In this document: piece by piece, positions 2,643-56,204 of the stretch | How positions within the stretch are numbered: the first letter of the stretch is position 1 | Layout: each line of letters starts with the position of its first letter | Assembly (NCBI GenBank): GCA_951406725.2 | Contig: OX597823.1 | Span: 70,494,001-70,558,000 of the forward strand | DNA from: Octopus vulgaris | Lineage: Eukaryota | Direction: 5' to 3' | Length of the DNA: 64,000 nt | The notes under the pieces: model-generated | Database searches by the model: none | What the model saw: the letters and a program-made list of their open reading frames with translations, nothing else | Told to the model about the DNA's origin: nothing | Translations under genes and position numbers: made by a program

Positions 2643-4164
2643 AAATGAGACAACAAAGTCAAGGCTGTGTGGAATTTTCAGGACATTTATAAAGAGAAAG
2701 TTAGTCTTACAGCTGTTTTTGGGATATTAGGGATATCCCTTCACCAGAGACGATGTGAGATAGTTAAATGGAGGGAAATTTTAGAGTTCAATATCAGCAG
2801 TTATTTTGGAAAAGGAAGCAAATAAGGAGTATATAGGGAAACAAGAGAATGATTGTAGAAATAAAAATAAAAATATATACAAATGTTATAGTTGCAGTTT
2901 CATACCATAAAACGGATCACTTCATCATCTAAATTGCACATTTTCTCTGATGAAACGGGAAATATGTACCCTATTACTATCGAGGAATACAACAAATTCA
3001 TCAAGAAGGAATTCTACAAGTCTTATAAACTAGCACTGACATCTGCCTTTGACAACATCAACACCAACCATTGCAGGCTTATGAACAAATTACATGTGAC
3101 GACTGCACAGAACCCTACTGCCCTACATCTCCACACTTCAACCATAAAAATCATAAGATGGACTTCATAACTAAACCATCGATACACTTCATACTGGGAA
3201 GAATAAGCAAAAATATTTTAGATAAAATAATACCAATTGTCAAGGAAAAATTGAAGTCAACTTATGGTCCTGTACAGGTGAAGTTATAACATGGTTCTAT
3301 CTCTTAAACAACAAAAACTCTTCTTCTTTCCTACAATTCGATATAAATAATTACTACACTTCTATTTTCCCCAAACTTCTTAATCAAACGCTCCTTCTAG
3401 CTAGGAATCTAACTAACCTAGTCCTACTAGAAATTAACATAATCATTAATGCCCATAAACCCTTATTTCTTTTGAGGGCACACTTTGGTGCCGGGCCAAC
3501 CACGATAGCAATAACAATAACCATAACAAATTATTTGACATTTCTATGGGATCATCCAACTCCGCCCAAGTTACCGACTTCGTCGGACTATACATACTCC
3601 ACCAGCTCCAAATACATTTCTCTAACATCAAGGGAAGCCTCTACAGAGATGACGCCTTGCTAGTGACCAAGAGCGCAAATAAATCCTCTTTAGAACGAAA
3701 TAGGAAAGATCTACACAAATTTTTCTCTAGCCTCAACCTATCTATTACTTTTGAAAATTCCCATAAAATCACTAATTTTTAAGCCGAAAGTTTAAACTTA
3801 GAAACCTACCAATACTCTCCCTATCACAAACCTAAAGTATATGAAAGGATATCCTTTCATATTTCCTCTGCTACTCTCTAAATTATTGTAGGCTTAATAA
3901 GCTATGCATTATTTTCTAAACTCATTCTTCCACAGATATAACAAAAAAGAAACAATGTAAATATTTTGGTTTCCATTATTGATGGAAATTTGTTTAAAAA
4001 ATGGTTTATCCTTTATGTTTGAAGTCTATGCAGTCATCTGACGAGAACGGTTCCTTTCAAATTGATGTAATGTTTTCATTCAATGTTCAAATAATATTGT
4101 TGGGGTGTGCAGATTATACCGAATTAGCAAGGTGCCTCAATTTAAGTATCTATTCATCTGAATC

Positions 4165-4170
<6 letters not shown>
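2643..4170 (+). mobile_element. Decayed Penelope-like element with an inverted 5' pLTR-like segment, flanked by (TA)n
   Basis: Frameshifted RT: LQFDINNYY, FDISMGSSNSAQVTDFVGLYIL, GSLYRDDALL. An antisense HHR-like motif lies at 2704-2751. (TA)n tracts at ~2626-2642 and 4170-4202. Confidence 0.75.
2704..2751 (-). ncRNA. Degenerate minimal hammerhead ribozyme motif
   Basis: Minus strand GTCT-CTGGTGA-A-GGGATAT/ATATCCC-AAAAA-C.AGCT.G-TA-AGAC. Stems I, II and III pair, but the core has two substitutions. Confidence 0.6.
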
Positions 4171-4204
<34 letters not shown>

Positions 4205-4208
<4 letters not shown>

Positions 4209-4557
4209 GATTAGATTAGGTAGCCATCTATCGGTCTCGAAAGACCATAGATCTGTGCCTGGAGAATTTTGCGTTAGCTGCTGATGGGTGCAAGGCCTGG
4301 TGTAGCTATATAGGCACACACGGGAGTGGCAGTCTTGCATCTGCTGACTGCATTTAAAGATACTTTAAAGATGCTTCGAGCGCGCTTTTCTTCGGTGGCA
4401 AATCTCTCTTTCTCTGCCCATCGCTCCATCCCCTTTTGCATCATCAGCATGGGCGATCATTTACGACCTCCTTCCATCTCAGGACGTCCAGATCTATTGA
4501 CTTCCTATTTGTTTTGCAGACGTCCTTGAAACGAAGATAAGGTCGTCCTCCTGCTCA
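4205..4557 (-). mobile_element. RTE (BovB-like) LINE 3' fragment
   Basis: GRPYLRFKDVCK and a CHSRVCLYSYTRPC zinc-finger-like C-terminus; short (CTAAT)n tail. Confidence 0.7.
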
Positions 4558-4561
4558 TGTA

Positions 4562-4614
<53 letters not shown>

Positions 4615-4615
<1 letters not shown>

Positions 4616-5110
4616 GAATGATAGTGGTTGTAAAGGTTGTGCTGTTGAAATTTTTCTTACATGTTTTGTATTTTCCATAGCAACTTTTACTGGTTTAAAT
4701 CGATTGACGTTACACGTGTTAAAATCATTGGACAATGAAAGACTTGTCGTTGAAGTGGTGTAGCTGCGAATGGGGTTTAAATTTGGATGAAATTTGTTCG
4801 AGAATTTCTTTAATCGTTTCGTATCGACAATAGAATTTTTATGGCTGTTTGATAGCACCGGAATAGACATAGTAATTGGACATATCCTCAGGAGACAAAA
4901 GTAATTTTGATAAATTCTATAATTTTAATAATTTGACTAATGATGAATTTGTGTTGCATGGTATTTGATAAAACTGGTATTTGATAAAACGATCGTACTG
5001 CATTACCTCTGGATATCCTTGTTGCTTATTTTGATTATAATCACCTAATTTTAAATTATATGGATAATACCATACTAAATTCTGGTGCCTTCAACTTAAC
5101 TACCACATTC
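4615..5110 (-). mobile_element. Highly decayed Penelope-like fragment (RT C-terminus to Cys-rich linker)
   Basis: Broken frames give HPYNLKLG, IQR*CS and CYGKYKTC. Confidence 0.35.
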
Positions 5111-5237
5111 ATATGAATTTTTATATATACATATACATAGTAAATAAAAATAATCAAGAACAGACAGAAGAAATAATAACAACGCAAGGACGTGGTATAT
5201 GCAAAGTATTAGCAGACGCTCAGGGAAAGAAATGTGA

Positions 5238-5270
5238 TTTTACGTTTTGAGCAAAGCTCTTCTTCAGAAA
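5238..5270 (-). ncRNA. Degenerate minimal hammerhead motif in a pLTR-like segment between (TA)n tracts
   Basis: TTT-CTGAAGA-A-GAGC.TTT.GCTC-AAAA-CG-TA-AAA; the GAAA box is mutated to AAAA. Confidence 0.55.
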
Positions 5271-5423
5271 CAGGAGACAGAGGAAAATCCAAGAAAAAAG
5301 GAAGACGGAGAACAAAGATCGCCAACGATTCACATGTGGTTACATTTCGAAATGACCGGAAGGGAATAGTATTCATAAAATAAAATAGTATTGATAAAAT
5401 ATTGATAAAATAGGAGATGGAAT

Positions 5424-5471
5424 GTGTGATGGAATGTGTTTCGACCTGTTTTAAGGTCTCTTCAGGTACAC
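5424..5471 (-). ncRNA. Hammerhead-like motif
   Basis: GTGTAC-CTGAAGA-GACCT.TAAAAC.AGGTC-GAAA-CACATTCCA-TC-ACAC. Core boxes and stem II are intact; stem III is disturbed, possibly by the overlapping 12-bp tandem duplication. Confidence 0.5.
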
Positions 5472-5668
5472 CAATAAAAGGTATCACCAGAGATTTCTCG
5501 AGTTGGCGCGAAGTACCGTTATCTATATATATATATCATCGTCATCATCACTATCATTATCATCATCATCATCATCATTTAGCGTCTGGTTTCCCTACTG
5601 ACATGGATTACAGTATTTGACTGAAAGTGGAAAGCCGGAGAGCTGTACCCGGTTTCAGCCTGATTTAT

Positions 5669-5701
<33 letters not shown>

Positions 5702-5864
5702 CACGTATTCCGCATTGATATAAAAGATTGTGGTCAGTGGTATCTTTGGGAATAATTACTGAAGATTGCCGTCTAGTAGAATGTTCTCTTCTACTCGAGG
5801 CACAAGGCCCGAAAGATTTTGGGAAGGGACCAGACGATTAGATCGACCCCAGTACGCAAATGTT

Positions 5865-6800
5865 GAATGCCAGATGAGATCTCCCTGCATCCCCCGTCGT
5901 TCGAATGAAGGTAGTGCCAGCCGTTGGAGTTGTTCCTCTTATGCAAGCTTAGACAAGCCCGCGCCCATTCGGGTGGGGGGCAAGTGCTGAACCCGTTCCA
6001 GGTGCTGAATGTCTTTCTGGAGATATGGGTTTGAGGTATGGATGTAATATTCAAGGATGGGTCGAACAAGAGTGACGTATACCGGCCTAAAGACGTCCAT
6101 TGAAAGGTTGGCAAAGGATCGGTGAATGAGGAAAAGATTCCTTCTGGTTTTGTTCGCCACCTCGATACCCTGCCGCGGTGGTCTGAAAGTAGTATCGATC
6201 ATTATGCCGAGATCCTTTTCTTCAGTGACCATCTTAAGATGTTGATGTTTGTGGCCATTAGTCAAGGGAGAGTTTGGAGGTGAACCTATTGGCAAATGGC
6301 TGCATTTTGAAGCGTTCAAGGGCAGATCCCATTCTTCCGCCCAATTCCAAGCTCGGTTCAGCGACGATTGGAGTATGTCGTGTTGATTCCTAGGCGAGAC
6401 AAGTTTGACGTCGTCTGCAAATAGGAGAACTCTTCCATCAAGAAAATCTTGCAGGTCGTTGATATAGAGAAGGAAAAGTAGTGGCCCCAGCACCGACCCC
6501 TGGGGAACGCAGCTGCATGCATTCGTCTCCGCGGAGATCTCTCCATTTATCTGCACCCAAAAGGTTCGATAGCTCAAGAAGGAAGAAATCCACGAAGTCA
6601 CCAATGAATGAATCTTGAATGCTCGAAGTTTGCGCTAGAGAAGTCGGTGATCAACGGAGTCAAACGCCTTTGCGAAGTCCAAAAATACCACGCCAATCGA
6701 GTCTTTTTCATCCATGGTCCTTGTAATCCATTCTTCAAGAAGGAGAAGATTTGTTAGGCAAGATCTTCGGGGTAGAAATCCATGCTGCGAGTAGGATATA
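5865..6800 (-). mobile_element. CR1-clade LINE reverse transcriptase fragment
   Basis: FLDFAKAFDSVDH, VPQGSVLGPLLFLLYINDL, LFADDVKL, LVRPILEY and LERVQ, with in-frame stops. Confidence 0.9.
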
Positions 6801-6929
6801 TCTTTGTACCAATACAGATAATTGTATAATACTTTGGTTGGAAATAGCTGTGGGAATGACCTGAACGTTGTGAATAAAGATAAAGTCGAGTACGTTATTT
6901 TCCCCTAATTGGACGGGTAATGATTTGTT

Positions 6930-7480
6930 GAACTCCTCCATACTCTACCTGGATATGCTTCAACGTTTGTCTCCATTGATACTACCATCGACGAACATGC
7001 TGTTGTTAAGTACCCAGATGAATTTCTCAACTCTCTACAACCCACAGGTCTGCCAGCTCAGAAGTCGTTCCTAAAGAAAAGTGCACCTATCATGCACTTG
7101 AAGAATTTGAACCCACCACGACTATGCAATGGTACAAGATTGTCTGTAACTACATTGACAAGTCATGTCCTAGAAGCCACCATTATTGCCAGCTGCCTTT
7201 GAGGAGAGATCGCATACAGTCCACGCATGCCCCTTATTCCCTCAAATGTGCTCTTTCAATTCAAGCACTTCCAGTTCCTAGTGCCATTGTGCTATGACAA
7301 TCAACAAAGCTCAGGTTCAAAATTGTTGGTCTCAATTAACAAATACCCTGCTTTTCCCATATGTCACATGGTCTCATATGTCACATGCTCTCATATGTCA
7401 CATGGTCTCGAGTTAGCAGCGCAGATGACTTGCATATTTATTCTGCCAACACTGGACTTACGCAAAATATAGTTTACTCA
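6930..7480 (+). mobile_element. Helitron PIF1-like helicase fragment (pseudogenised)
   Basis: YPDEFLNSLQPTGLP...PIMHLKNLNPPRLCNGTRL...PRMPLIPS...AMTINKAQ, with a stop codon and frameshift. Confidence 0.85.
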
Positions 7481-7770
7481 GAAGCATTGTTGACTTCACT
7501 TAAACATATGTTGAAGTGTGCAGTCTGTCCAAACATTACAGGGATGGTGCTTTTCACAATGAAGAATCTTTCTTTCTATGTACCTTAGCTTCTGCAAAAT
7601 GGATACCTCTACGTCCTCATACATCATCCAATTCTTTACATCCGTAAGTCTAGGTCATTTTGAGGGCAATGTTAGGATTTAATTCTAATCTAAGTTGCTA
7701 TTCTACATGCTTTTAGTGTCAACAATATCAGCATTATTCATCACAAAATTACCGAAACACATGTTTCTAA

Positions 7771-7773
<3 letters not shown>

Positions 7774-7861
<88 letters not shown>
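7774..7861. repeat. (GA)n microsatellite
   Basis: Read directly. Confidence 0.95.
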
Positions 7862-7863
<2 letters not shown>

Positions 7864-8199
7864 CGAGGGAGATATAACCGAACTCTGTGACAAACCAGAG
7901 TCGACAATCCGTGAGTCAGATTGAACCCTTTTAATGTAGTCTTTCAGGAAACTACCAAGCCAAGAGTTGCAAAACGGACGAAAGCTATAGGTTGTTGTGA
8001 TTATCTTTATTATTGATGTTTATCCTCGGGTGAACCCTATTATCAGCGACCTTCAAATCTTTTCAAATATATTTTACTTTAGATTACATAACCCAATGTC
8101 ATTATTTTTTAAAAATACGGTATACGAACATAAGAATTATTTAGTTGCTACGTTAAGCTGATTAAGCAAGAACGTAAAATATTCCTCATTGAATTAAAG

Positions 8200-9280
8200 T
8201 CATGGGTTTAAGGAGGAGGGCTTTTATGATATCAAGTGTAATAATATTGCTTTCGCAGAGCTTAACAAGAGCGAGAAGCCACTGGTATGTAACATAGAAA
8301 AAGTCAAGAAGATGGAGTAAGAGATAATTACCGACCGTTTCTATTACCTTTTAAATGCTGAGAGTGAGATTGATAGACCTATAATTGGTGGAGATTGATC
8401 TTCTTGGAGATGGGACGGACAAGCATGTTTCCAAAATCTAGTGTAGATTATATGCCTGTAAAGACTTTACAGAAACACTGAAGAATATGGTGAGGATAAG
8501 GGCACACAGAGTGAATGATCTTGTTGATTTGAAGTAATAAAACCGTTTTCGCACATTAAGTGTATTTGTGATGGCTGGCGTGACAAGGTAGAGAAGTAAA
8601 GTAATGGAAGAGTTTTGATTCTAAACAAAATAAATAGTAAATGTGGAAGTTAAGATGGTTGTTTCAGTCATCAGTTTAGCTGTCTCTTATGGATCAAGTG
8701 CTAAATGCGTCCTCTGTTAGGGATAGTCAGCGTAAAATTAATTTGAGACGACATTGAGGTCAGGAAACCGGCATGTTTTGCTGAATGTGAGTATGTTCTG
8801 AAAAGCTTTGGTAGAGTAATGGTCAGATGATTTTATTAGTGCAGGGACGACGATAGTTTGGTAAACGTTAAGTTTGGTGCAGAGAAAAAAGAGCGTTATA
8901 GGAGTGTTAGATTCTAGATAAATTGTGAAGATTGTGAGAATGATGACTTCACAGTGAGGTTACATGAGATAATGTTCTCGATGCAGGAGATAGTTGAGTA
9001 GTTATTGTTCTTTGGCCAAGAGTAAATGGAAGTCTTTGTTGTTGATATCTCGCTGAGTAAGGAAAGCGGAGCGAAGAATGGATTCTAATCACCTTTCTGA
9101 GAAAAGTTGGAATACTGGATGTAGATGGGACAGCCGTTATAGGCTTTAAAAGTAAGCGACGTTGGATTTGTGATTTGGAGAAATGCGTATTAATTAGAAG
9201 GTAATGATCATGGGCTCAAATCGGAATGAAGTCCACAGATGTTGATATATAAAGGATTGATCATGATTTATATTTGTTTT
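8200..9280 (-). mobile_element. Decayed LINE (AP-endonuclease region, CR1/L2/Jockey-like)
   Basis: YINICGLHS (NIRGL-like) near 9230-9250; the rest is heavily degenerate. Confidence 0.4.
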
Positions 9281-17948: not shown

Positions 17949-18104
17949 AAGTTATATAAAATCTTTAAGCGCGAGATAAACAGTAACAGTACGGAATCGT
18001 AAAATATATTTTCCAACTAAATGTGGCCACATTTTGTTGGCAAATATATTTTGCGATTTTGTACAGTTACTGTTTATCTCTCGCTCAGATATTTAATATA
18101 ACTT
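17949..18104. repeat. 156-bp imperfect palindrome (fold-back MITE-like)
   Basis: Arms pair around the centre TGG|CCA at 18026/18027 with no spacer. Confidence 0.8.
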
Positions 18105-22799: not shown

Positions 22800-23068
22800 A
22801 ACTATAAATTAGGGTATCTGAGAGATACCACCATGCTGAAATAGCAGTCAAAACCCTGACCCTGTCTCTCTGCCTTCTCTCCTGGCGCGATATGAACATT
22901 TAAGGTGGCTTTAGGGTCAGGGTTTTGACTGCTATTTCAGCATGGTGGTATCTCTCAGATACCCTAATTTATAGTTTTAAATAATTATTACTTTTGTATG
23001 GTATTTATTCCCATGGTCACCACTTGATAAGATCGATATTTAAATATCGATATTATCCTAATTTATAA

Positions 23069-23072
<4 letters not shown>
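22800..23072 (+). mobile_element. Fold-back element in (TA)n: 64-bp perfect inverted repeat plus unique 3' extension (PLE-type junction)
   Basis: 22800-22863 is the reverse complement of 22913-22976; (TA)n lies on both sides. Confidence 0.75.
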
Positions 23073-23802: not shown

Positions 23803-24817
23803 TTATAGACTTTTGTGAAAGTCCCTCGCATGAAATGGTGTTGTTGGTATACCACGGAAAGCTAGACTAAGTGCCCTGAAAGAATAATATATTCCAATGG
23901 AACCTACAACAACGCCGATTATAATGATACTAATATCTAATACTTTTGTGTACCATGGAAGTATTTTGCCTTTAATTCTGATATGAAAGAAACACGGCCA
24001 AACAAAAGAAAGCATAGTACCAGTGAAGCTACCGATCAAACCCATAAGTATTGCGAAATGAGGAATAAATATAGCCATTGCCATTGTAGCTAGGACAAGA
24101 CCAATTCTCAGACATCCTGCCCATATTTTGAGGCGACAGTTCTCGTCAAAACAAGAAGGAAAATAAGTCGAAGGTTTTCCGTTGAAATATGTAGTCTGAA
24201 TCATCTCCACGGCTGCATAGTATGGAAGTGGATAGGAAAGAGTGGATTTTGCTACAAGAATTAAATTGACGACAATCTTTAGGCTCTGAGTTGGTAAATT
24301 ATTTGTGATCACTTCCTGCGTTCCATTTCCCCATGTTAAGAAACAGATATACGAGAACAACACTTTGAAAAATGCTGCTGCTATGTGAGTCCAATGCATC
24401 ATGCAGTGAAACCGGGAACGATCTTCCATGTTTTCTTCTAGTGTTGGTAGAAATATCTGTGAGGTATAGCTGAAAACTACAATACCTATGGAAATGGGGA
24501 ATGTCCAAACATCAACTTTAATCTGGACTGATTTCCACTGCCATTCGGTGGCCCGTGTAAAGCAAAAAATTAAAATAAATGCATTAATTGCCATATGAGC
24601 CATGGTGCACCAAAAACTGAGCCAAGAGACACCACGCAAGGACTTTAAAAAAGCGTAGCTCAGTAGCGGAGTTGTTGCGATCATTATCCAGAATGTGAGA
24701 CTGATAGGCGACTCAGGGAAACTTCCCAAAATCAGTTCCCCGCTGAGTAATACGTACAGAATGCAAGTCATTAGTAATTCTATCAGCTGAGCGACGTTGA
24801 CGATCTTACCACCGAAT
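23803..24817 (-). CDS. SLC32A1: Vesicular inhibitory amino acid (GABA/glycine) transporter, last coding exon
   Basis: Acceptor TTTGTTTCAG| before 24817, completing an Arg codon split by a phase-2 intron. FGGKIVNVAQLIELLMTCILY, GIVVFSYTSQIFLPTLE, LSYPLPYYAA and PHFAILMGLIGSFTG are hallmark VGAT/UNC-47 motifs. Ends at TAA. Confidence 0.95.
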
Positions 24818-25007
24818 CTGAAACAAAAATATTAAAATATAAGGATTTGGTATAAACGAAAAATAATTATTAGAACGTTCAGAAATTGGTTTTTAAAAGC
24901 AAGTTAAATTTGAAGACAAGAATACAATTTCTTTCAGCTGCCTTAGGAATAAAATTAATTTCTTTTCTCTATGCTTAAAACACACACTCACACACATACA
25001 CACACAA

Positions 25008-31034: not shown

Positions 31035-31064
31035 CAAATTTGGGGATAGAATAGATAAAATTCA

Positions 31065-31148
31065 GCCCAGATATGTTTCATAGCTAGAAGAACCTCGAAA
31101 GTGGTAGTTACCCAAACGAGGGGTAACCCGCTAGCTACTCTTCAGGTC
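31065..31148 (-). ncRNA. Degenerate hammerhead-like motif with a long branched stem II
   Basis: GAC-CTGAAGA-GTAGCTAG...(GTTACCC/GGGTAAC hairpin)...CTAGCTAT-GAAA-CATAT; stems I and III are decayed. Confidence 0.4.
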
Positions 31149-33557
31149 AAAGATACCTTAGTCGAATGAAAGTTACATTGTCGTCAAGAGGTCTCATGTT
31201 AACTGGTAGGAGAACTGATCGAAAATGTGTGGAATGCACACATTTTTATTATCATACACAGCAACCCCAGCTACTAACCGTGAACTATGAAATAACTTTT
31301 TTCAGTTTCCCGAACTTCGATATGAGAAAAGTTTACAACGATCTACGTCAATAAACAACAATTGTTCCTGAAAGTTGTTTTTATACCTTCTACAGATTGC
31401 TTGAAGCTTATTAACCTCTTACACCTTGATCCTTGGATCTTACTGTTTATGCAGAAATGACTTCTAACCTTAGTCCGTTCAAAGAAGGGGTACCATTCAG
31501 AACGACTAAGAAAGGATTTATTTAATACGTTCAAAAGTTGCGACTTTAAGATTGCTGTAGACTTTAAGACTACTAATATAGTCAAATTGTTAAGACATTA
31601 CACTCAATCGAAATGCAGACATTTAGAGCCGATATAGAAGACCAAGCAAATTTTCAAAATTTCGCCCCACTATTCTTTAAAATTTACCTAGGAAATTTCA
31701 GAGAAATTTCAGAATATCTACTGATTCAGAGACATATAACTGTTCAACTGTATTTTGCAATGACGCTTTAATCAGAAGCAGCTTCACCGATAGGATAGAT
31801 TTCATTCCTCCACGCAACGAAAGCTATATAATTTAACTCTCCTTTCAGTTTAAATATCAGTTCTAACATTATCCGATCATTTCTAATTGAAAAGTTCCCG
31901 GCTTGTCATAAGTTACATTAAAACCTTAAACAAGTAACAGTGCACCGATAGTTTCACGTCCTCATTTGCTTGTATTAATCAAAAGAAATTAGCTTGCATA
32001 TTTTCAAAATTATTGACAGGCATAGATTATATTTAAGATTTAGAATAATAAGGTTGTTATGGTGTTGTTTCCTTTCAGGCTTTTATAGATAATTTTATTT
32101 TTCCTTATAATTTTTCTCCTTATACCTTTCCTCCACTTAGACAAACCATTTTAAATTAAAGTAATCGCGTCAGTATTCAGTTTGAAATCAATGCCATTAC
32201 GGGCAGGTATTTTTCTTTTGCATTATCTAATCCTTTATAAGACTCTCAGGAGGAGAGGAAGTACTCTGGAGAAAATGAAAGAATCGAATAGATGGGAAGG
32301 GCTTACAGTAGATAATTTATCAATCTTTTTACCTTTCCTTATTCTTCCTCACCTCATCACTTTACTGATTAATCAATTATTTATTTTTCATCATGATTGG
32401 CCAAACCATCGGTTCTTATGTTCATTATTTCGTGTAAATTGGTTTCATAAGATATGTTTGATCGTCTTTCTTCTAAAATTCAAATACTTGTTCACACATT
32501 TGTATATCACGGAGAAGCATGGGAATTTTTCGTCTCTTTGTAAGTTGAAAATTCCAAAGATGTTTTTGAAGTGAATCAAGTTTTCCTTAGAAAAATTTCA
32601 GCTACTTGTTACAAATAGAATTCAAAGCGAATATTTTTCCTTTCAGTTTTAAATTTAGAAATCATCTTAGTAATAAATAACGAAGTGTTGATGACGAATA
32701 GGAAAAAGCAATGCTAGAAAAGCAAAACAGAAAAGAAAAGAAAAATGAATTTCAAATACAGTAACAAGAGGCAATAGCAAGAAAAGGAATAAATTCAATT
32801 TTTATTACTATTACCGCCTTGTCTTGAATATCAGAAATTGCAGGGTGTAGAATTCATAGGTATTGCTTCTCTACAAATCATATAAAGGTTTCTTTTCATC
32901 ACATTTACATGTGTCATCGTATGTATTTCTTACGAATTATCATATATCTATTGCGACACACACACGTAGACACACACACATACAAGTATATGTATATCCA
33001 ACTACATATATAAATATAAAGACACAAGGATGTACACACACACACACAGACACACACACACACACACGTGCTGTGTCGCTATAACATATGTTATTTTCAC
33101 AGATGAAGCCCAGGAGGCGAGTAAGTTAATATCAAATAAACAATTAGATATTCCTTTATCATAAATTAGTAAATAACCGGATTTCCTCGTCTAAATTGTT
33201 TATGTAACTTTGAGTTGTTTCGAACCTCTACACAAGGACTTCCAGTGGAAACTGGGGTGTATATAATAAGTACAAGTTCTATACTTTGCTGTCACTTACA
33301 AGCAAGTATGTACTGGTAGTAGAGGGTCTTTGTTCGCAGACATTGGCCCACCCACACTTGAATCAGCGGAAGGGAGAAGAGAGATAGTCATCTGCAAATG
33401 AGTTGATTGGCATTCATTTACAACTGAATAAAACGGAAATGATGTGCCTTAAGCAAAGATATAATGCCTGGTTCTGGAATCGAACTCATGACCTTAAGGT
33501 CAGGAACCTAACACCCTTAACCACTAGGCTACACATCATCACAACAATTAACTATTA

Positions 33558-33951
33558 ATAATAAATCTCAGAGCGAGTTATAAACAGTAGCTACAACACA
33601 TCGTGACGTATATTTGCCATTGAAATATGGCTCACCCCTAAGGGTGGATGCTACAGTAGTTTGTAGCCCCAGGAGGCCACCGCATCCAGCTGGCTATAGA
33701 CACACTTTCTGTGCCCTATCAGTATTTGCAAAGGGAAGTTATCCTTCCCGTCTTCAACTTATGATACACACGGACTCGAGTTTCTGGGTATTGACCCGTC
33801 ATCGGAGTGTGACAATCACAGATGTCGATGAGAAGTAGATTCCCTAAGTGTGTCTATAGCCAGCTGGAGGCGGTGGCCTCCTGGGGCTACAAACTACTGT
33901 AGCATCCACCCTTAGGGGTTAGCCATATTTCAATGGCAAATATACGTCACG
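33558..33951 (-). mobile_element. Non-coding fold-back PLE-type element with an HHR motif and TSD
   Basis: 106-bp inverted arms 33602-33707 and 33846-33951 (2 mismatches); 12-bp TSD AATTAACTATTA at 33546-33557 and 33952-33963. Confidence 0.85.
33767..33811 (-). ncRNA. Hammerhead ribozyme-like motif (CCGAUGA variant core)
   Basis: CACACT-CCGATGA-C-GGGT.CAAT.ACCC-A-GAAA-CTCGAG-TC-CGTGTG, with a palindromic stem III. Confidence 0.65.
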
Positions 33952-34999
33952 AATTAACTATTAGTTCTATAGTAAAGTTGATTCGATCGCCTATACTTTA
34001 TCTTACACAATTGTGATCATGTAATAATGGGGAAAATCAATATTAAACTAAAATTAAACAAAAGACGAATTCATTACGATGACGACGAATGAAAAAGAAA
34101 ATACTCGCTTTCAATTCTATTTAGAGCACATAGCTGGAAATTTTTTTCGGAAAACTCAATTCATTTTAAAGCACCTTTGGAATTTTCAGCTTACAATGGG
34201 ATGAAAAATTCCCATGCTTCTCTATAATACACAAATGTGTGAACAGGTTTACGAATGTTTGAAGAAAAACCATCAAATACATCTCGTTAGACCGATTTAA
34301 ACGAAATTATGTGAAATCACAAATTGCAACAATACTCACTATTGCTACAATTTGGAAAGGGAAAACTTAGGGGAATATTTACAATTTGAACTCAGATATT
34401 GTACGTTTACGCAGAGCGCGCGAGTGTGTATGTGTGTGTGTGTGGGTGGGTGGTGGTGGGGGGAAGATAGATAGAGGGAGAGGGAGAGAGAGAGAGAGTA
34501 AATATTTCAATGAATAGGCTAAAAAATTGCAATTCCTATACCTGAAATGCGCTAATTTAATTTTAGAACAATTTTTAATAAAGTACGGCTACATTTTATT
34601 TTATCACAAACAATTTACTGAAAAAGAACTCAACTCAGCACTATACAATATCGATAATCAAAAATAACAATACACATATACAAATTTTAATAAAGAATAC
34701 AAATTTTTATCTTGAGTGGGAACTTATAATAGAAGGAAGCCAATATAGATTCTTTTAAAATATTGAGTAGAATGCTTAAAGGATAAGAATTAGTTTTCTT
34801 ATTTAGACGAGATACAATGCATTGTATTTTATTAATTTGAGGCAATGGAAGAGTGTAACTGAAGATTTTTTTCGTCAACTGTTGTATGCTTACGCAATTC
34901 ATATGATTTTCAAAAGATTTTTTTAACTAACAGGACCATTGTACTTGGCAATCACAGAACGATTGCAACTGCAAGTGAATAATCTACTCGTAAAAGAAG

Positions 35000-43440: not shown

Positions 43441-43445
43441 GAATT

Positions 43446-43532
<87 letters not shown>

Positions 43533-44082
43533 GAGTAAGAGAACAGTGCATGCCAGCAAAGTGACACTGGGGTAAAATATACGAAACCCAGTATACCCAT
43601 CATGACTACCCGTCCGATAAGGGTACACTAGGCACATGCATCACAACCATATGTGCGCGAATGGTGATCTTATATGAAGATAAACAGCACGTTACCTTGC
43701 AGGTGGGGCTCCGAATTTTCTTCTGGTCGAGTAACCAATCTTGCTCAAAAGGTCCCTGAATAAGGGTTATTTAAGGATGTTGAACGAAACACCCATGTTT
43801 CCAGAAGTGAATTATTCAAACCCCAAAGATTCCCTCTCAACACATGGCTATGATGCTCCCCCACTACTTCTGCTCGTTATCAGAGATGCACATATCGTCA
43901 GCCACTAAGGGACATGCTCAACTGGTTAAGGTCAAACAACTGACAAGCAAATCTGTGGTATTGAGCAGAATATTTGCTGTAGCCCATCTTTTATACCAAG
44001 ACAAAACAATGCGCATGATAACACTTCCAATCAGTTAAGATCAGAAGCCACGAGAGCCACTGCCTGATATTGCATCAGGGCA
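43533..44082 (-). mobile_element. Family D, full length (550 bp), in (AAT)n
   Basis: Same two ends as the 58581-59160 copy; (ATT)n on both sides. Confidence 0.88.
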
Positions 44083-44098
44083 TTTATTATTATTATTA

Positions 44099-44160
<62 letters not shown>

Positions 44161-44497
44161 GAGTGAGAGAGCAGTGAATGCCAACAAAGTGACACTGGGG
44201 TAAAATATACGGAGCCCAGTATACCCATCATGACTACCCGTCTGATAAGGGTACACCAGGCACATGCATCACAACCATGTATGCGCGACGTGTTGATCTC
44301 ATATGAATATAAACAGCGCATGACCTTGCAGGTGGAGCCCTGTTAGAATTTTCTTCAGGTCGAGTAGCCCATCCCGCTCAAAAGATCTCTGAATAAGGGT
44401 TGTTTAAGGATGATGAACGAACCACCCATGTTTCCGAGGATGAATTATCCAAATCCCAAAGAATTCCTCTCAACACATGGCTATGATGCTCCCCCAC

Positions 44498-44498
<1 letters not shown>
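44161..44498 (-). mobile_element. Family D, 5'-truncated
   Basis: Shared 3' end; (ATT)n on both sides. Confidence 0.88.
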
Positions 44499-44573
<75 letters not shown>

Positions 44574-44579
44574 CATTTA

Positions 44580-44797
44580 GGCGGCAAGCTGGCAGAATTG
44601 TTTGCTTGCTGACTGGACAAAATGCTTAGCGGTATTTCGCCCATCGCCATTTGCTAAGTTCAAATTCTGCTAAGGTCGTCTTAGCCTTTCTTCCTTTCGG
44701 GGCCGATACAATAAGTACCAGTGAAATACTGGGGTCGATGTAATCGACTTGTCCACTGCCCTTAAATTTGATGCCTTGTGCTTCCAGTTGATAGGAT
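44580..44797 (+). mobile_element. SINE family C
   Basis: Homology to other family C copies. Confidence 0.75.
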
Positions 44798-44832
44798 TAT
44801 TATTATTATTATTATTATCATTATTATTATTA

Positions 44833-44900
<68 letters not shown>

Positions 44901-45358
44901 GAGTGAGAGAGCACTGCATGCCATCAAAGTGACACCGGAGTAAAATATACGAAGCCCAGTATAACCATCATGACTACCCGTCTGATAAGGGTACACTAGG
45001 CACATGCATCACAACCATATGTGCGCGACATGTTGATCTCATATCAAGATAAACAGCGCTTGACCTTGCAGGTGGAGCCCAGTTACAATTTTCTTCTGGT
45101 CGAGTAACCCATCCCGCTCAAAAGGTCCCCGAATAAGGATTGTTTAAGGATGTTGAACGAACCACCCATGTTTCCAAAGGTGAATTATCCAAACCTCCAA
45201 GAATTCCTTTCAACACATGGCTATGAGGCTCCCCCACTACTTCTGCTCATGATCAGGGATGCACATATTGTCAGCCACTAAGGGAAATGCTCAGCTGGTT
45301 ATGGTCAAACAACTGACAAGCAAATCTGTGGTATTGAGCAGAATATTTGCTGTAGCCC
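44901..45358 (-). mobile_element. Family D, 5'-truncated
   Basis: Shared 3' end; (ATT)n on both sides. Confidence 0.88.
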
Positions 45359-45635: not shown

Positions 45636-45694
<59 letters not shown>

Positions 45695-45752
45695 CATTAT
45701 TATCATCATTATTATTATTATTATCATTATTATTATTATTATCATTATTATA

Positions 45753-48434: not shown

Positions 48435-48436
<2 letters not shown>
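48332..48436 (-). mobile_element. Family D, 105-bp 3' stub inserted in the CR1 (ATT)n tail
   Basis: Shared 3' end; (ATT)n on both sides. Confidence 0.85.
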
Positions 48437-48498
<62 letters not shown>

Positions 48499-49731
48499 TT
48501 AATTGAAAACCAGACATTATATTCCTTGGCGCAAATCAGTGTGCTATTAAGGCAAAGGGTGGAACAGCAGAAATGGTAGTGTTGCAATTCTAAGTGATAC
48601 CCTTGAACGTAACTGCACTTAAAACATTCAATGGTTGAGTTTCAAATATTCGAGATTAATAAGTTACGTTTGTGGGTTCGATAAAATGGGCTACAAATTT
48701 CCTTGAAGCATTTGTGGCTTCTTCACATGTTAGCACTCGTTATTATGGTTGTGTGAGAATCAGGAAGTGATAGAAGTGGGTATAGCACCTTTTGGTGTTT
48801 AGTTGCATCTCCTAGTTCGAATCTTGCTGGGCAACTTTCCCACATCCCATCAAAAGCCTAGCTGAAGTAGCACCGTACATATATATCACTATTTTATGTT
48901 GACGTTAAAAATTATAGCAGAATCTATCCTATTCAAATCACTAACAAATATTACACTAAAACACGATGGCTTCAATAATAACAACAACCTCACTCCAACC
49001 CCAATACTTTATCTAACATCGACATTCACAAAGCTTTTGATTCCATTTCCGATTGCCCACTTTAAATTAAAATATTGATCAATTCAAGAAGCAAAATAGA
49101 ATAATGACAGTTTCCTGCATGAGACACATGGGCCTGTTCTCTTACCAATTCATTTGACCTACATCTACACGACCTTCACACACACAGCTTCATTTGTAGA
49201 TGACATCTCACTAACATTCTTCTACATTTTATATATACAATCGCACAAATTCTCCAACCTTACATCCATCAACTAGAAACTAGGCTCCAAAATTAAGAGT
49301 AACACTTAATAAATCCAATATCTTTCATTTTACCACTTGGAAAATTACCACCCATCGCACTCACTAATACAAACATATAATGCACATACAAAGAACATAA
49401 AAAAGTATTTGGAGGTTTTTAAAATACACAACCTCACCTACTCTCGTCATCCCCAATCTTTCCCAGTTTTTTCTCTCTCTCCAGTACATCATCCTTCTAG
49501 TCTATGATTTTCACGTAGCAGTCGTCTTGTAGTTGTTTAAGAGAAAACAACCGAGTCGATCTCAACAGGGTCTTCCTCCAGAAGAATCGTTAGAAAAACA
49601 GAGGAAACATATCCACAAAACAGATAGGAGGCACAAAAAAGAAAAAGAAAAGGATGCCATAATTCTCCGTATTCACTATCAGAATTTATACTCATACGGA
49701 AATATACTGAGGGAATAGAACATGTGTAGAT

Positions 49732-49801
49732 TATGACACTGCACTTCATATGACACTGCACTTCATATGACACTGCACTTCATATGACACTGCACTTCAT
49801 A
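49732..49801. repeat. 17-bp tandem repeat x4 (TATGACACTGCACTTCA)
   Basis: Read directly. Confidence 0.95.
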
Positions 49802-49882
49802 CGAATAACAAAAGCATGTCAGAAGATGCAATGTAGTTCATGGTAAGGTGGAAGCATGTTATATCGGAAACAATTATGGTAT

Positions 49883-50280
49883 GGGATGGAAGCACTCCGT
49901 CGGTTACGAAGACGAGGGTTCCGGTTGATCCGAATCAACGGAACAGCCTGCTCGTGAAATTAACGTGTAAGTGGCTGAGCTGAGCACTCCACAGACACGT
50001 GTACCCTTAACGTAGTTCTCGAGGATATTCAGCGTGACACAGAGAGTGACAAGGCCGGCCCTTTGAAATACAGGTACAACAGAAACAGGAAGTAAAAGTG
50101 AGAGAAAGTTGTGGTGAAAGAGTACAGCAGGGATCACCACCATCCCCTGCCGGAGCCTCGTGGAGCTTTAGGTGTTTTCGCTCAATAAACACTCACAACG
50201 CCCGGTCTGGGAATCGAAACCGCGATCCTATGAAAGCGAGTCCGCTGCCCTAACCACTGGGCCATTGCGCCTCCATCCTC
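49883..50280 (-). mobile_element. SINE family B, full length
   Basis: 12-bp TSD CAATTATGGTAT at 49871-49882 and 50281-50292. Confidence 0.92.
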
Positions 50281-50972
50281 CAATTATGGTATAATATACA
50301 AGTGAAAATATTTTATGTGGCTAGACAATTTAGCGTCCAGTTTTCAGCTGCTCAATCCGGGGAGAGTGGTGTTTTACATTTGCTACAAATTTCGTACCTG
50401 GAATTATGTTGTTCTGTTAACATCTGTTCTATTAAGCGGGCTTTTCTATCGGCTCAAAACTCCAAACTCCGTGATTTCTGCTCTGGTGTCTCGTGTTTGC
50501 TCAAGCTGGTTTGTCTATCGACTTGAGACTCCATTATCCGTCGTTTCAGCTCTGGTGTATTTTGTTCCTTCAAGCCGGCTTGCCTGGTTGTTTGAAACTG
50601 AAGTTTTACTTCTCGTTGTTCTTGTGTCTCCACGGCATTTCGTTGCCTATGAGATGGGAGTCTGTCCTGCTTTCTTCTTATATTTTCCTAGCCCTTCGAC
50701 TTCTGGAGCGTCGGACTTCAGTGGATTGAAAAGTATTATGCTGTCTTCTATGCATCATATTGAATGTTCTAAAGTAAGATATCTAAAAAATCAAAAATAA
50801 ATCCCGCAACATTTAACTCATTTTTGTTGTTGTTTCTAAATCCAATCATGTAACTTTATTTCATCCAGCTACCAAACTTCATAGAAATTAGTTCAGTATA
50901 ACAATTATACCTTTTATATAAACCAGCAAACTTCATCTCCCAAAACGAAAATATAATCGCTTCGAATCGTAG

Positions 50973-51039
<67 letters not shown>

Positions 51040-51577
51040 TTATATAAATGTAAGATCCAGGGATCGAGGTGTAGGAAGAAAGTTAGCTTCCGACCCCGCA
51101 GTCGAATGGTGCAATATTGCTGACCGTATTTTAATTAAAGCAACGGTTTTAATAAGACTGTCTTCGGTATTTCGCGTTCGTAACGGCTAAACATGTAGAA
51201 ACACAGCGTCCGGGAATCCGATAAGGGGATGCATTGGACAGATATAGTGATTTTACACATTTTCACCATAAGAGAGAATTTTTTGTGCACAGTAATTGCA
51301 GTGAATTTGCCTCTAGAACTTGAGATATGTCGCAAACATATCTTGACTAACCTAAAGTTCGCTTATGCCTAAACATTGCTTAGCACTGATACTGCTGTAA
51401 TATACATATACATATATACAGTTAGGCTATCACGAAGTATACATACATACATACATACATACATGCATACATACATACATACATACATACATACATACAT
51501 ACATACATACATACATACATACATACATACATACATACATACATACATACATACATACGTACATACATATGCATGTA

Positions 51578-51622
<45 letters not shown>

Positions 51623-52079
51623 TAATAATCAAAGGGTAATCTGAGATATTAGAAATTTCCATTACCAGTGGCCTAGCATGTAAAAATTTAGTCAATAGAC
51701 AATATATTAATCATATAAATACAGTGTACATTTAAACACATAAGAGGCATCCATCATAGGACTACCTACACGCTAGAGAGGACAGTTAAATTCCAAACCA
51801 CTTTATACATACACACACACATATATCCATTTACTTCTCTATTTCTCTCTCTCTCTCTACACACACACATATATACGTGTGTGTGTGTGTGTGTGCACAC
51901 TCATACATACACATACATATTTATATACACCTATGCATGTGTATACATATGCATGTGAGCAAGTTCCTAGTCTTTTATTCAGTTCTTGTAAGTCTGTCAT
52001 TGTTCACTTTAAAAACAGAAGCAGAGTATCTCAATGTTGGCATAATCCATGCATTTATTGTCTGGATGAGATTAGCTCC

Positions 52080-53650
52080 ACTTAGGTTTTTTTCAAGCTC
52101 TTTCTCACACTTCCCTTGTACATTTTAAAGACCATCTTATTTCTCTTTCCGTTACCTTTTCTTCCTGCAGCACCCTAGGTACTTTATCCTTCATTATCCC
52201 CCCACTAATCTAACGATATTATATCAAGTGGCATCTTTATACCATCAGATTTCATTTTTCAACCTCTCTTCATAGTTAAAACTGCCCTCTTATTCGTTCT
52301 AAATATATTAATAATAGTCTATTCAACCAACTGCTAAGTTCTATTTTATTTGTACATTACTGTATCGTGCTATGAGCAGATTTCCTTCTGTGTCAATTTT
52401 CCTCTTCCGGTAATAGATCGTTAAGTTTAAAAAGTTATACAATTCATCTGCTCTGAAACTAGTTAGTAATTTCCAGAGAAATGGTAAGCATGTAATAGAT
52501 CTTTTATTTTTCTTTATCCTTCTGCATTGATACTGTTCTTCTATTTGCAATCCATATTAGTGTACCATTCCTATGCAATCAGTAAACGGTTGTATATAGC
52601 CGCGAATGTTTGTGAGATTTTTGAATTAGAATCCCTGTACACACACCATCAGGTTCAGAAGCTTTCTAGTTTGATATTTTTGAAATGACTTTTTCAGTTT
52701 TTCTTCAGTAATATTTATACTCTGTTATCTTGGCCTATTTTCCATTTCCTTTTCAAATTTCAGTAATATTGCTGTGTTGAACATCTTTTCTTCTTGCTGC
52801 TTCTGCATTTGGTGTATAATTCTCCTTACACCCATCTTTATTGTTCAACTGTTAGTAAAACTTCCTTTCATTGTTTCTGAAGAACCTCTTCTGATTAATT
52901 CTTTTAATTTTTAATCGGACTTTGCTTTAACCGTTTCGTCTTATCCCTTAAGCAACTTGTAATCCTGTGTACAATATCAGTTATTTCTTTGGAGCTCGCT
53001 CCTCTGTCTTTTCTCTACCTTATTCTCCACTCATAGTAAACATCCTTCCAAGATCGCTATTAAGCTGCTTAGCATAATTTTTAAGTTTTCATGTGTTCTG
53101 GCCCTTATTTTCTGCTTAATAATTAACCCCAAGAATTCCTACAGCAACCGAGGCTGCGTTTTATATGGAGTTCACTTGCACCTGCTATATTCTTCATTCT
53201 CAACTTTAATTTTCGTTAAAGATTTATTCATTATCTTTACTTCTTTTTACACTGTTTCCAGCTTCAATTCCTTTCAGAACTGATAATCTCGTTTCATCCT
53301 TAATCTGTGTCTCATGTAAATGTTGGATTAAGTTCCTTCCTTCTGTAATATCCTTTTTACAGCGGAGTAAAACTTACTTTCACTTTCACTACAGCTGTTT
53401 TCTTTCTGATGATTCATTGCTATTTCTTGTTCAATTTTCCCTTCTACATGGCCATATTCTCCATCATTCACTATTTCGACAATTTCTTCCAAATCCAGCT
53501 GGGATAGCTTTTATCGTTTCGTGATTTGATTTTTCTGATAAAACTGTAGTGTTAAAGTGATACAACCACCGGATGTGTCACGTTAATACCATAATCCTCT
53601 TTATGAGTATAATTTTAGATAATATTTTAAATCATAATTGCAGTAAAGAG
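52080..53650 (-). mobile_element. Decayed R4/Dong-like LINE (N-terminal part of RT)
   Basis: RSITCLPFLWKLLTS (YRPITCL motif); many stops; boundaries approximate. Confidence 0.55.
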
Positions 53651-55087
53651 ACTGTATTCTCAGGTGAAGATCTCTCGCACAGCAAGTATCCCACTGCACA
53701 GCAGGACGGGCTTCACTGTTACTTAAGTGACAACAATTTGTTATGAACTGTTATTACAGGTTCGCTCCTGACAGCATTGTTATGTGGTAGTAGAAGTCAT
53801 TTGAGACTGTTTTTCTTAGAGGAACTGGAAAAGCTTGAAAGCTAGAAATGCCGAAAAGAGAGAAAAGCAAAGGAGATCAGCTGTGGTAAGCAATAAGAAT
53901 CCTTCAGTTTCAGCTTAGAGGCCTGTACTTCTTAGCTAGTGTTGCAAGTTTTCCTTGGTTACCTTCAACCGTTCAGCCTTCTCAGGTATTTGAAACGTAG
54001 GCAGTTTCTTGCTATTGCTTTATCATAGCAATATTGGGACAACTAGAATATTGATGCCTGTTATTGCATTTTACGCACTTTACTGTTTTAAGTATTAACC
54101 TAATGTATTTATAATATTCTTTCATTTAACCTTATATTTCATTTGTATGTATTTATCATTTTCTGGTGTATTGATTCTTAAGTAATTGTATGCTGTTGTC
54201 TGGTCAAAATCTCTTATCTCATGTTTCTTTACAAATCACTATAAGTTCTGATTAACTTTTCATATCTTCAAGGTTGCCGCAGCATATTTTATTGAAATTC
54301 GAAACTCATTTCAATTTCTCTTGTAAATCCATGTACCATCTGCAGTGGTGTTTTTAGTTGTTTAATATCTGCAGCGTATATATTCACGTTGCCCATATAC
54401 ACAGTATGGGTGACTGTTCTGCCATAAACTTCGTAGGCGAATCCACTCCAATTTGGTTTGTCTCATGTTGTTCTTAGTCATGTGAACTTCTTATCCACCT
54501 CGGGGGAACAGTCTCAATGGGTTTGATACCTGTAACTGTAATATTATATTGCTTTCTAAGGACAGAAGAGATACACTTGTTTGTGAGTGTGAATAACAGA
54601 TTAGAAGGGTCAGCAGGCAGTTTATTCCTTATACCTGCTACTTTCTTCTTCAAGTCTAAATTAATTATTTTGAAATTATTTTCACAATATTTAACAGAGG
54701 TTGTTTAGGAAATTCATTTTGTGGTCGTGAAAAACTGATGGTGACTTCTTCGATAGTTCCCTAGTCACCCCCAGAAAACAAATTTTGGTGGACCGAAGTA
54801 GCTTAGTGACATTTCTTTGGGCTCTTTATGTTCTGAGTTCGAATTCCGCGAGGTCGCCTTTGACTTCCACCCTTTCGGAGGTCAATGAAGTACAGGGTGT
54901 TCGGGCTAAATTGGAAGTTTGCATAAAAGTAAAAGAAAACACAATATCACCTATCACAATTAGCGCAGGAGTGGCTGTATGGCAAGAAACTTGCTTCCCA
55001 ACCACATGGTTCCGGGTTCAGTCCCACTGCGTGGTATCAAAGCCTTTCGAGCGGATTTGGTAGATGAAAACTGAAAGAAGCCCGTCG

Positions 55088-55113
<26 letters not shown>

Positions 55114-55124
<11 letters not shown>

Positions 55125-55539
55125 ATTCGAGACAAAACCACTATTTTGCAAAACAAACAAGGAAAGACTTAATCAATACATAAAAATTTTTAATATAAAG
55201 AAATAAACCGCCACTACAATCGTTTCATGTCTTCAATGACATTCGTCAGGTGGATTTTCGATCTCCTAATCTGTTTTAACTTCATAAATTAAAACAGATT
55301 AGGAGATCGAAAATCCACCTGACGAATGTCATTGAAGACATGAAACGATTGTAGTGGCGGTTTATTTCTTTATATTAAAAATTTTTATGTATTGATTAAG
55401 TCTTTCCTTGTTTGTTTTGCAAAATAGTGGTTTTGTCTCGAATTATATTATATAATATTTTACTATAAAATTGGTTTTAATCCTAAATCTGATTTTTCTC
55501 TGTAAATTTGGATTTATTCCTAATATTTATTATTATTAA

Positions 55540-55545
<6 letters not shown>
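55114..55545 (+). mobile_element. Fold-back HHR element in (TA)n
   Basis: 166-bp arms 55114-55279 and 55289-55454 (no mismatch seen), 9-nt loop, ~90-bp unique 3' extension. Confidence 0.9.
55315..55357 (+). ncRNA. Minimal type I hammerhead ribozyme with intact core (mirror copy at 55211-55253, minus strand)
   Basis: CCAC-CTGACGA-ATGTC.ATTGAA.GACAT-GAAA-C.GATT.G-TA-GTGG; predicted cleavage after GUA at 55353. Confidence 0.85.
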
Positions 55546-55607
<62 letters not shown>

Positions 55608-55613
<6 letters not shown>

Positions 55614-56200
55614 TAGTAATGCAATGGAGGTAAGACAATTTTTTTCAAGTTTGTTGCACTCACGCATTTTTGCTAGTACATACGCGGTGAAGCTATACAT
55701 TAGCGTCGTATTATTACGTTTGCTATTTCCAGTAAATATCGGTACTTCGTTGTGCCATATATTTACATCTTTGTATATTTTTCCCTCACGGGCTATTCTT
55801 TACGGGAAAGCAATACTCTAGTATTGCATTACTAATTTATTGAAACTTCTTCACCGTTCTCGTTCTGTTAGCGTTTCGGCGTTTCAGTCGAGTGTATTGG
55901 CATTAATGTGGTAACATCTGAAATGTTGTCGTGGTATATGTTTGGCTGATGAAGATAGATCAAGTATATGTGTGCAGGCATATCTTGAAAAATCTGAAAC
56001 CGGCGCCGGTCCCACATTATCCTTTTCTAGGTATTTCATCTTTCAGATGTTCTCCCTGGAGGTAAGACAATTTTTTTCAAGTTTGTTGCACTCACGCATT
56101 TTTGCTAGTACATACGCGGTGAAGCTATACATTAGCGTCGTATTATTACGTTCGCTATTTCCAGTAAATATCGGTACTTCGTTGTGCCATATATTTACTT

Positions 56201-56204
<4 letters not shown>
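55608..56204 (+). mobile_element. Retrozyme/pLTR-like element: 432-bp unit with 148-bp terminal direct repeats and an 18-bp inverted 5' tag
   Basis: 55625-55772 matches 56057-56204 (2 mismatches); 55608-55625 is the reverse complement of 55823-55840; (TA)n on both sides. Confidence 0.85.
55938..56017 (+). ncRNA. Type I hammerhead ribozyme with intact core and extended stem II
   Basis: TGG-CTGATGA-AGAT..TCAAG.ATATG/CATAT.CTTGA..ATCT-GAAA-CCGGCGCCGG-TC-CCA; predicted cleavage after GUC at 56011. Confidence 0.85.

Follow-up and report, generated by a model that had tools for sequence, protein, structure and literature searches.

The 64,000-nt stretch of the Octopus vulgaris genome analyzed here (contig OX597823.1; G000:C10:70494001-70558000; hereafter the window) is a microsatellite-rich part of a 2.8-Gb genome. 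It contains short repeats with head-to-head inverted arms and hammerhead ribozyme (HHR) motifs, as well as a decayed Penelope-like element (PLE) of the Hydra clade. We propose, with a probability of roughly two in three, that this element and the short HHR repeats were inserted by a PLE enzyme that makes a nick in each strand of the target and, from each nick, synthesizes one copy of a single RNA. The observations are as follows: the repeats form families, each family has its own end sites, each arm uses one site, insertions carry target-site duplications (TSDs), many paired arms are not contained in one another, and paired arms share alleles. Inverted arms, tails, HHRs and a preference for (TA)n have all been published for PLEs, as has the plan of a partial tandem, an inverted 5'-truncated copy and a tail on one side, and they make up no new architecture. 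The element types and their plan were already known; the copies contribute a mechanistic footprint.

Repeats of the window belong to dispersed families

Elements are labeled E1A, E1B, E2, E3, E4, E5, E6a, E6b and E7 (Table 1), and L-numbers denote genome loci or copies fetched. A sequence-only reading of the window had named five mutually dissimilar elements with a common plan, and blastn agreed, matches between them being simple repeats only. The inverted segments reported in four of them are all real, with lengths of 64, 107, 169 and 18 bp (64, 106, 166 and 18 bp had been claimed). The E2 arm at 22800-22863 is the reverse complement of 22913-22976, and the E3 arm at 33846-33952 that of 33601-33707. 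The E4 arm at 55114-55282 mirrors 55286-55454 across a 3-nt loop, giving a near-perfect hairpin, and the E5 arm at 55608-55625 mirrors 55823-55840. As described, (TA)n surrounds four of the five elements; the fifth, E3, lies within a 12-bp AT-rich target duplication (33546-33557 / 33952-33963). TATA-like junctions noticed near 55454 and 55772 both fall on end sites used family-wide. The stretch 2643-4170, taken for a single element, is a composite of a Hydra PLE remnant (2643-3835) and a second family (3860-4170).

First-look searches with E2-E5 gave 1506-2806 candidates per family, of which 40 were scored for each. Each is a dispersed genome family. The E3 unit is 353 bp long and occurs in arrays of nine or more units; the E5 unit is 432 bp and the E2 unit, also tandem, 482 bp. 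No tandem E4 was seen among the loci fetched. Judged by sequence, E2, E3 and E5 are retrozyme-like, non-coding tandem units with one type I HHR each, E2 lying slightly beyond the 150-450 bp range. Contigs from four runs, whose RNA nature is only guessed, cover most of E5, but neither strand nor ends nor circles are visible in them. Differences between repeats 1 and 2 of E5 were private to each copy and did not show which repeat had given rise to the short arm. At one locus (L099), an E5 copy is nested within an E2 copy, one family having inserted into another. At 18026-18099 the window holds an old fragment 74% identical to the 3' end of an E3 relative.

Read on the HHR strand, E2-E5 copies have fixed 3' ends and variable 5' ends. 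Two end sites are used per family: positions 154/216 in E5, 259/338 in E4, 311/353 in E3 and 69/152-163 in E2. The distance between the sites is 43-95 nt, and ~200 nt in E7. Tracts of (TA)4 or longer adjoin the ends in 105/109 cases for E4, 46/57 for E5 and 37/47 for E2, against a background of 2% of window positions.

The two arms of an insertion end at different sites

We call the two fixed end sites of a family A and B, and an insertion with one arm at each A+B. The two-armed set comprised 109 rows, some of them segmental duplicates, and 21 rows were unclassifiable because of a truncated end. Among the remaining 88, 86 were A+B (E4 41, E3 23, E5 13, E2 9); two were A+A, in one complex locus, and none was B+B. 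A separate, pattern-found set of E3 insertions gave A+B in 47/47 classifiable rows, with 15 further rows unclassifiable.

Neither E3 arm contains the other in 30 of these 47 rows, or at 27 of 43 distinct sites, and 11 of the 47 A arms do not extend past site B. The same lack of containment was read by hand in 7/13 E5 rows, with a one-unit shift allowed. E7 of the window is an inversion without any overlap. A-arm 5' ends at exactly site B pile up in E7, a query-selected sample, and number only 2/47 in E3. A fold-back requires one arm to lie inside the other, so in its simple form it fails for these pairs. Inner junctions have short overlaps in 81/109 rows.

At a common A/AA polymorphism, both E4 arms have the same allele in 29 of 31 scorable pairs, where 55% would be expected (P = 3e-6), and 15 variants are shared between arms. 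Both arms thus derive from a single RNA or a single donor, unless they were homogenized afterwards.

Target duplications and pairing with the target

Of 68 two-armed E3 insertions, 29 lie in (TA)n; a 10-18 bp TSD flanks 35 of the 39 outside it. Among the 30 sites retained, 22 have a TSD of 12-13 bp; discounting microhomology, the length is mostly 10-11 bp. On either side the insertion ends with an element 3' end, which is what priming at both nicks would give.

Of 35 rows, five were excluded from the microhomology test (three duplicates of one site, one poly-A slippage and one ambiguous 18-mer). Across 60 E3 junctions with known target, template and target shared a mean of 1.30 nt, compared with 0.75 nt for permuted starts (0/5000) and 0.81 nt at random flank positions (p = 0.0006). 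Alternating-AT runs at the seven start sites rank in the top 1-16% of positions, high in E5, E2 and E4 and less so in E3. The sequence-only reading had these elements prime by pairing with (TA)n. Microhomology above chance supports part of that idea, but there is none at 20/60 junctions, and 39/68 two-armed E3 insertions lie outside (TA)n. Target pairing is thus a weak bias that tunes the exact start; it is no requirement and does not explain (TA)n targeting. In the portion of Craig et al. (2021, PMC8557442) considered here, such targeting is tentatively attributed to the endonuclease linker.

Hammerhead motifs

A strict HHR descriptor matched the window at four sites: 55319 (+) and its mirror copy 55249 (-) in E4, 55946 (+) in E5, and 61552 (-), which we judged chance-like. 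Local dinucleotide shuffles, 40 in all, averaged 0.05 matches. Allowing one core mismatch added no site (4 versus 0.42 per shuffle, 12 shuffles). An Rfam scan of the window returned no HHR at gathering score, only 5426-5471 below threshold (E 4.6); its hairpin matches to miRNA families were rejected as artefacts. Minimum-free-energy folding of seven HHR copies was no better than for shuffles except at 2704 (z -2.3), a measure that is uninformative for minimal HHRs.

Seven HHR motifs had been listed at the outset. All belong to genome-wide families, but only two are intact in the window, at 55315 (E4) and 55943 (E5). Motifs at 2704, 5238, 5424 and 31065 are damaged copies, with a family majority that is a canonical minimal type I HHR (CUGAnGA / GAAA / UH core plus stems I-III). 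In family alignments the core is intact in 9/15 segments for 2704 (the E1A family, with the HHR in sense at the 3' end), 9/20 for 5238, 4/5 for 5424, 4/17 for 31065, 18/24 for 55315 and 48/50 for 55938. The E3 motif (33767-33812, minus strand) has a CCGAUGA (U4C) core fixed throughout this large, tandem-forming family, the canonical core appearing in 1/46 copies (L061-L090, L261-L275). U4C is described as a natural HHR variant, slow yet viable, in the part of PMC3088659 considered. Nor does every small element carry an HHR, as had been supposed: 22800-23072 itself has none, while 11/16 copies of the E2 family do. An HHR-like motif of E1B (4020-4085, plus strand, near 4036) lacks G12 in 24/24 segments, and 0/24 have the minimal core.

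A Hydra-clade element and its intact relatives

The Penelope-type reverse transcriptase (RT) recognized from the sequence is indeed present at 2946-3833, with MGSS..YRDD, and matches an intact genomic open reading frame (ORF) at E 3e-47 in tblastn. Genome copies match the E1A query over 259-1193 and, separately, over 1-261. In L139 and L149, the RT is followed by the 1-261 segment, whose HHR is in sense; in the window, this segment is therefore an inverted 3' end. Genome copies assign 3860-4170 (E1B) to a family other than E1A. At 3836-3862 the RT remnant is joined to that different family via a 24-bp perfect palindrome, and the remainder of the first element is missing; this junction may reflect a nested insertion with deletion or a template switch.

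E1A copies L126 and L147 have RMRWK and FSDKTG, and downstream of the RT, family copies have CNCx5C, YIGST and CxxC. RWK/DKT occurs in L201-L207, and RWA, RWL or RWR with DKT in other intact families. By motif scan and by eye, the C-terminus has a putative GIY-YIG region with a CxCx5C linker, CxxC and CxH and no CCHH; the window copy is cut before this region, and the L212-L214 family is without the CxCx5C linker. E1A motifs are those that define the Hydra clade (PMC8557442), and by these motifs the RT element is a decayed Hydra-clade PLE with a predicted C-terminal endonuclease. An affinity to Naiad PLEs, floated earlier, was rejected: in Naiads the endonuclease is N-terminal and a canonical HHR is missing, whereas here the endonuclease motifs follow the RT and an HHR is present.

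A genome protein search gave 5371 candidates, of which 150 were scored, many with uninterrupted frames. Twenty fetched autonomous loci have ORFs of 660-1091 amino acids from several families, near-identical within a family, and an HHR scan found the motif in 10/20. Intact ORFs with Hydra motifs, elsewhere in the genome, are 778-1091 amino acids long. A predicted model of one of the intact ORFs, L213 (mean predicted local distance difference test score, pLDDT, 77), had telomerase RT (TERT) as its top eight fold matches. A profile search gave no GIY-YIG match in intact ORFs. Pfam returned nothing significant for window fragments, family fragments or four intact ORFs, and a PDB sequence search likewise; a protein homologue search gave ten relatives, without clade labels. 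Intact Hydra ORFs at L201-L207, L215 and L216 have long asparagine-rich inserts between RT and endonuclease. Such inserts are described for Adineta Penelopes in the portion of PMC3846280 considered here.

One autonomous family ends at two TATA-like sites ~118 nt apart, in (TA)n. In autonomous family A1 (L196, L202, L204, L302, L306-L308, L312, L315), G precedes (TA)n at the upstream site in 9/16 termini where the template has T, and at the downstream site most termini have T where the template has A. This base change could be an initiation mismatch, an untemplated base or a target feature. A partner search against 40 autonomous loci found links solely for 5040-5122 and the E1B 3' end. The former (plus strand) is another PLE 3' end, with 80% identity over 61 bp to the pseudo-long terminal repeat (pLTR) of intact Hydra families and a motif in common with the E1B end.

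Proposed mechanism and its alternatives

We propose that a PLE protein, possibly a dimer, would be supplied in trans by intact Hydra copies and would make staggered nicks ~10-12 bp apart in (TA)n or AT-rich DNA. Synthesis would initiate at both sites of the sense RNA, nudged by 1-3 nt of target pairing. The downstream cDNA would halt inside the tail or continue through the upstream start, and the two cDNA 3' ends would then be joined head to head, often via a few shared bases. The sequence-only reading had posited a population of non-autonomous elements that carry HHRs and are driven by PLEs. In structure, this agrees with the tail, the head-to-head arm, the TSDs of 10-18 bp and the intact PLE ORFs that have the same end pattern; the mobilizing enzyme is one that we infer.

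For head-to-head PLE inversions, an explanation by fold-back or self-priming is already in print: a cDNA, or the antisense template of PMC3846280, folds on itself, and copying runs back along it until the other end of the target can pair with a TATA-like site. The near-perfect hairpins of the window (169 bp with a 3-nt loop), the alleles common to both arms and the short overlaps at inner junctions all suit it. The term fold-back, used in the sequence-only reading, fits the appearance of the elements but not their origin, given the end sites and the non-contained arms. Containment fails at 27/43 E3 sites and in 7/13 E5 rows, and 11/47 A arms fall short of site B. Unless junctions often underwent large deletions, most E3 copies contradict fold-back, which we regard as improbable. 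Taken together, the end-site rule, TSDs, non-containment and shared alleles favor twin priming over the antisense self-priming of PMC3846280. Unlikely too, if less so, is the use of two RNA molecules of one donor locus, one copied per nick by two enzyme-RNA particles. Such a scheme accounts for TSDs and non-contained arms and, provided a single donor predominates in the cell, for shared alleles, but alone it gives no reason for arms almost never being on the same end site (A+B in 86/88 and 47/47).

That a non-PLE RT, such as a long interspersed nuclear element (LINE) with microsatellite targeting, moves the non-coding families seems very doubtful. No sequence identity connects E2-E5 with the autonomous PLE copies examined, and twin priming is known from L1. 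Yet there is no poly(A) or 3' repeat tail, and the two internal end sites, the tail at one end only and the HHR are as in autonomous Hydra copies. We give hardly any credence to an origin as TA-inserting miniature inverted-repeat (MITE) or foldback DNA transposons, bounded by terminal inverted repeats. The inverted ends and TA flanks of the window copies resemble such elements, but almost every copy has its own arm lengths and inner junction, and many copies are without the arm. Head-to-tail arrays of units, TSDs of 10-18 bp and HHRs on one strand also speak against them, and the variable 5' truncation refutes them.

Several points weigh against twin priming by a PLE. The similarity search favors long arms ending at A and the pattern search favors ends at B, which leaves A+A under-represented in one set and short A arms in the other; since each sample is biased to one site, the informative result is that no second arm was seen at that same site. 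In E4, 56 variants are specific to one arm, and allele sharing also fits one donor locus or later homogenization of the arms. Some non-contained pairs might be fold-backs that lost sequence at the inner junction. TSDs and microhomology could be scored only in one family, E3. Start sites are not always TA-like, with an unremarkable 8-mer score at 3/7. DNA similarity between E2-E5 and 40 autonomous loci or pLTRs revealed no link, and matches there look like neighboring insertions. Finally, starts of the PLE Poseidon_Ac in vitro are described as non-homologous to the target (PMC11167929), whereas we see weak microhomology.

We see an even chance that a stronger statement holds. The PLE head-to-head inversion with its one-sided tail would then be the footprint of obligate two-site twin priming, in which a dimer of the RT-endonuclease binds one RNA at both of its fixed starts. 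Each start would be primed from one end of a staggered cut, and the RNA would be copied twice without RNase H. Diverse octopus retrozymes would each have acquired a start-site pair, as direct parasites of active Hydra elements.

Other features of the window

Coordinates of all elements are collected in Table 1. Outside them, 23803-24831 (minus strand) is a 342-amino-acid ORF that resembles an exon of a multi-pass amino-acid transporter. Fragments at 5939-6634 (minus) and 695-1264 (plus) look similar to LINE RTs. The regions 43443-45358 and 58697-61608 hold several dispersed repeats of 200-560 bp, which occur in either orientation and contain (ATT)n/(ATC)n tracts.

Table 1. Elements of the window, their arms and duplications (window coordinates)
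Feature	Position	Strand	Description
E1A second arm	2643..2903	-	3' end of old Hydra-clade PLE; damaged HHR ~2704-2750; adjoins (AT)8
E1A main arm	2901..3835	+	frameshifted RT remnant (MGSS, YRDD, YHKP); cut before thumb end and endonuclease
E1B hairpin	3839-3862		24 bp
E1B	3860..4170	+	separate repeat family; ~240 bp internal deletion; non-canonical HHR-like motif near 4036; ends in (TA)17
E6a	5140..5365	-	old PLE-type 3' end; HHR ~5229-5271, G12A in window copy
E6b	5405..5520	-	second HHR segment; window copy short of 16 nt of stems III/I; family of 5 segments only
E2 short arm	22800..22863	-	stops at upstream end site, unit position ~69
E2 long arm	22864..23072	+	from 482-bp tandem HHR unit; 5'-truncated below HHR; ends in (TA)36
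E7 arm	31036..31240	-	damaged HHR ~31058-31145; stops at upstream end site
E7 other arm	31242..31443	+	starts where first arm stops; template positions of the two arms 138-352 and 351-557
E3 left TSD	33546..33557	.	12 bp
E3 long arm	33558..33845	-	from 353-bp tandem unit; U4C HHR ~33767-33812
E3 short arm	33846..33952	+	107 bp; stops 43 nt upstream of other end site
E3 right TSD	33952..33963	.	12 bp
E4 short arm	55114..55282	-	169 bp; mirror HHR 55211-55253; outer end in (TA)n
E4 long arm	55286..55545	+	intact HHR 55315-55357; tail ~79 nt; ends in (TA)n
E5 short arm	55608..55625	-	18 bp; stops at unit position 216
E5 long arm	55625..56203	+	1.35 copies of 432-bp unit; intact HHR 55943-56014; ends at unit position ~154 in (TA)n

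Comparison with known systems

Comparisons here refer to the portions of each paper considered. The RT element and its relatives are like endonuclease-positive Hydra-clade PLEs (PMC8557442) in RWK, DKT, the CxCx5C linker, the C-terminal GIY-YIG region and a canonical HHR, and also in (TA)n targets, an inverted 5'-truncated copy and a tail on one end. Tails are 43-200 nt here, against 30-40 nt in that clade. Hydra-1_Obim is listed there with (TA)n preference and an HHR, and the E1A family agrees by eye, motif by motif, with its printed N-terminal half. The octopus Hydra of that paper is one family without a pLTR, whereas we find several intact families, asparagine-rich inserts, pLTRs and many non-coding companions. 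Craig et al. name the origin of tandem and inverted structures, and the microsatellite bias, as open. An octopus repeat annotation lists active Penelope-like families, with no mention of hammerheads in the portion considered (PMC13282606).

As dispersed non-coding tandem units of 350-480 bp with low GC and one type I HHR each, the short families are like metazoan non-LTR retrozymes (Cervera and de la Pena 2020, PMC7229834; Li, Clavereau, Pollet 2026, 10.64898/2026.07.22.740005). A PLE is proposed there as the retrozyme mobilizer, and cleavage and circular RNA are demonstrated for those retrozymes. Head-to-head arms and two end sites, found in E2-E5, are not described for retrozymes in the parts of the two papers considered. 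The U4C core of E3, and E4 with no tandem copy found, are unlike the retrozymes of these papers. Our data add structural support for PLE mobilization of animal retrozymes, previously argued from co-occurrence and phylogeny.

Adineta Pen2a (Arkhipova et al. 2013, PMC3846280) likewise has direct and inverted pLTRs and a tail; its TSDs are 8-10 bp, with mobilization in trans by the pLTR. Its structure is explained there by antisense self-priming, against which the non-contained arms argue for the E families (PMC3846280). We found no account of twin priming as the cause of PLE inversions in the open-access literature; the printed explanation found was antisense self-priming. For L1, Ostertag and Kazazian reportedly described in 2001 a twin priming with internal initiation from the second target strand on the same RNA, which yields a 5' inversion bounded by a TSD. 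The second site of L1 is reportedly variable and its arms non-overlapping, whereas here the second site is fixed and the arms usually overlap.

The thousands of candidate copies with mapped end sites, together with intact enzymes in one genome, allow one to ask which nick starts where, how many RNAs are used and how much pairing is involved. Twin priming, as read from these copies, matches the behavior of Poseidon_Ac in vitro. In target-primed reverse transcription by that enzyme, a predicted dimer, both strands are nicked and extended, two internal starts define the tail and targets are AT-rich (Frangieh et al. 2024, PMC11167929). Two internal start sites and AT-rich targets are common to both systems. 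Poseidon_Ac is reported to have no strand difference in start sites (PMC11167929), whereas the arms of one octopus insertion use different sites.

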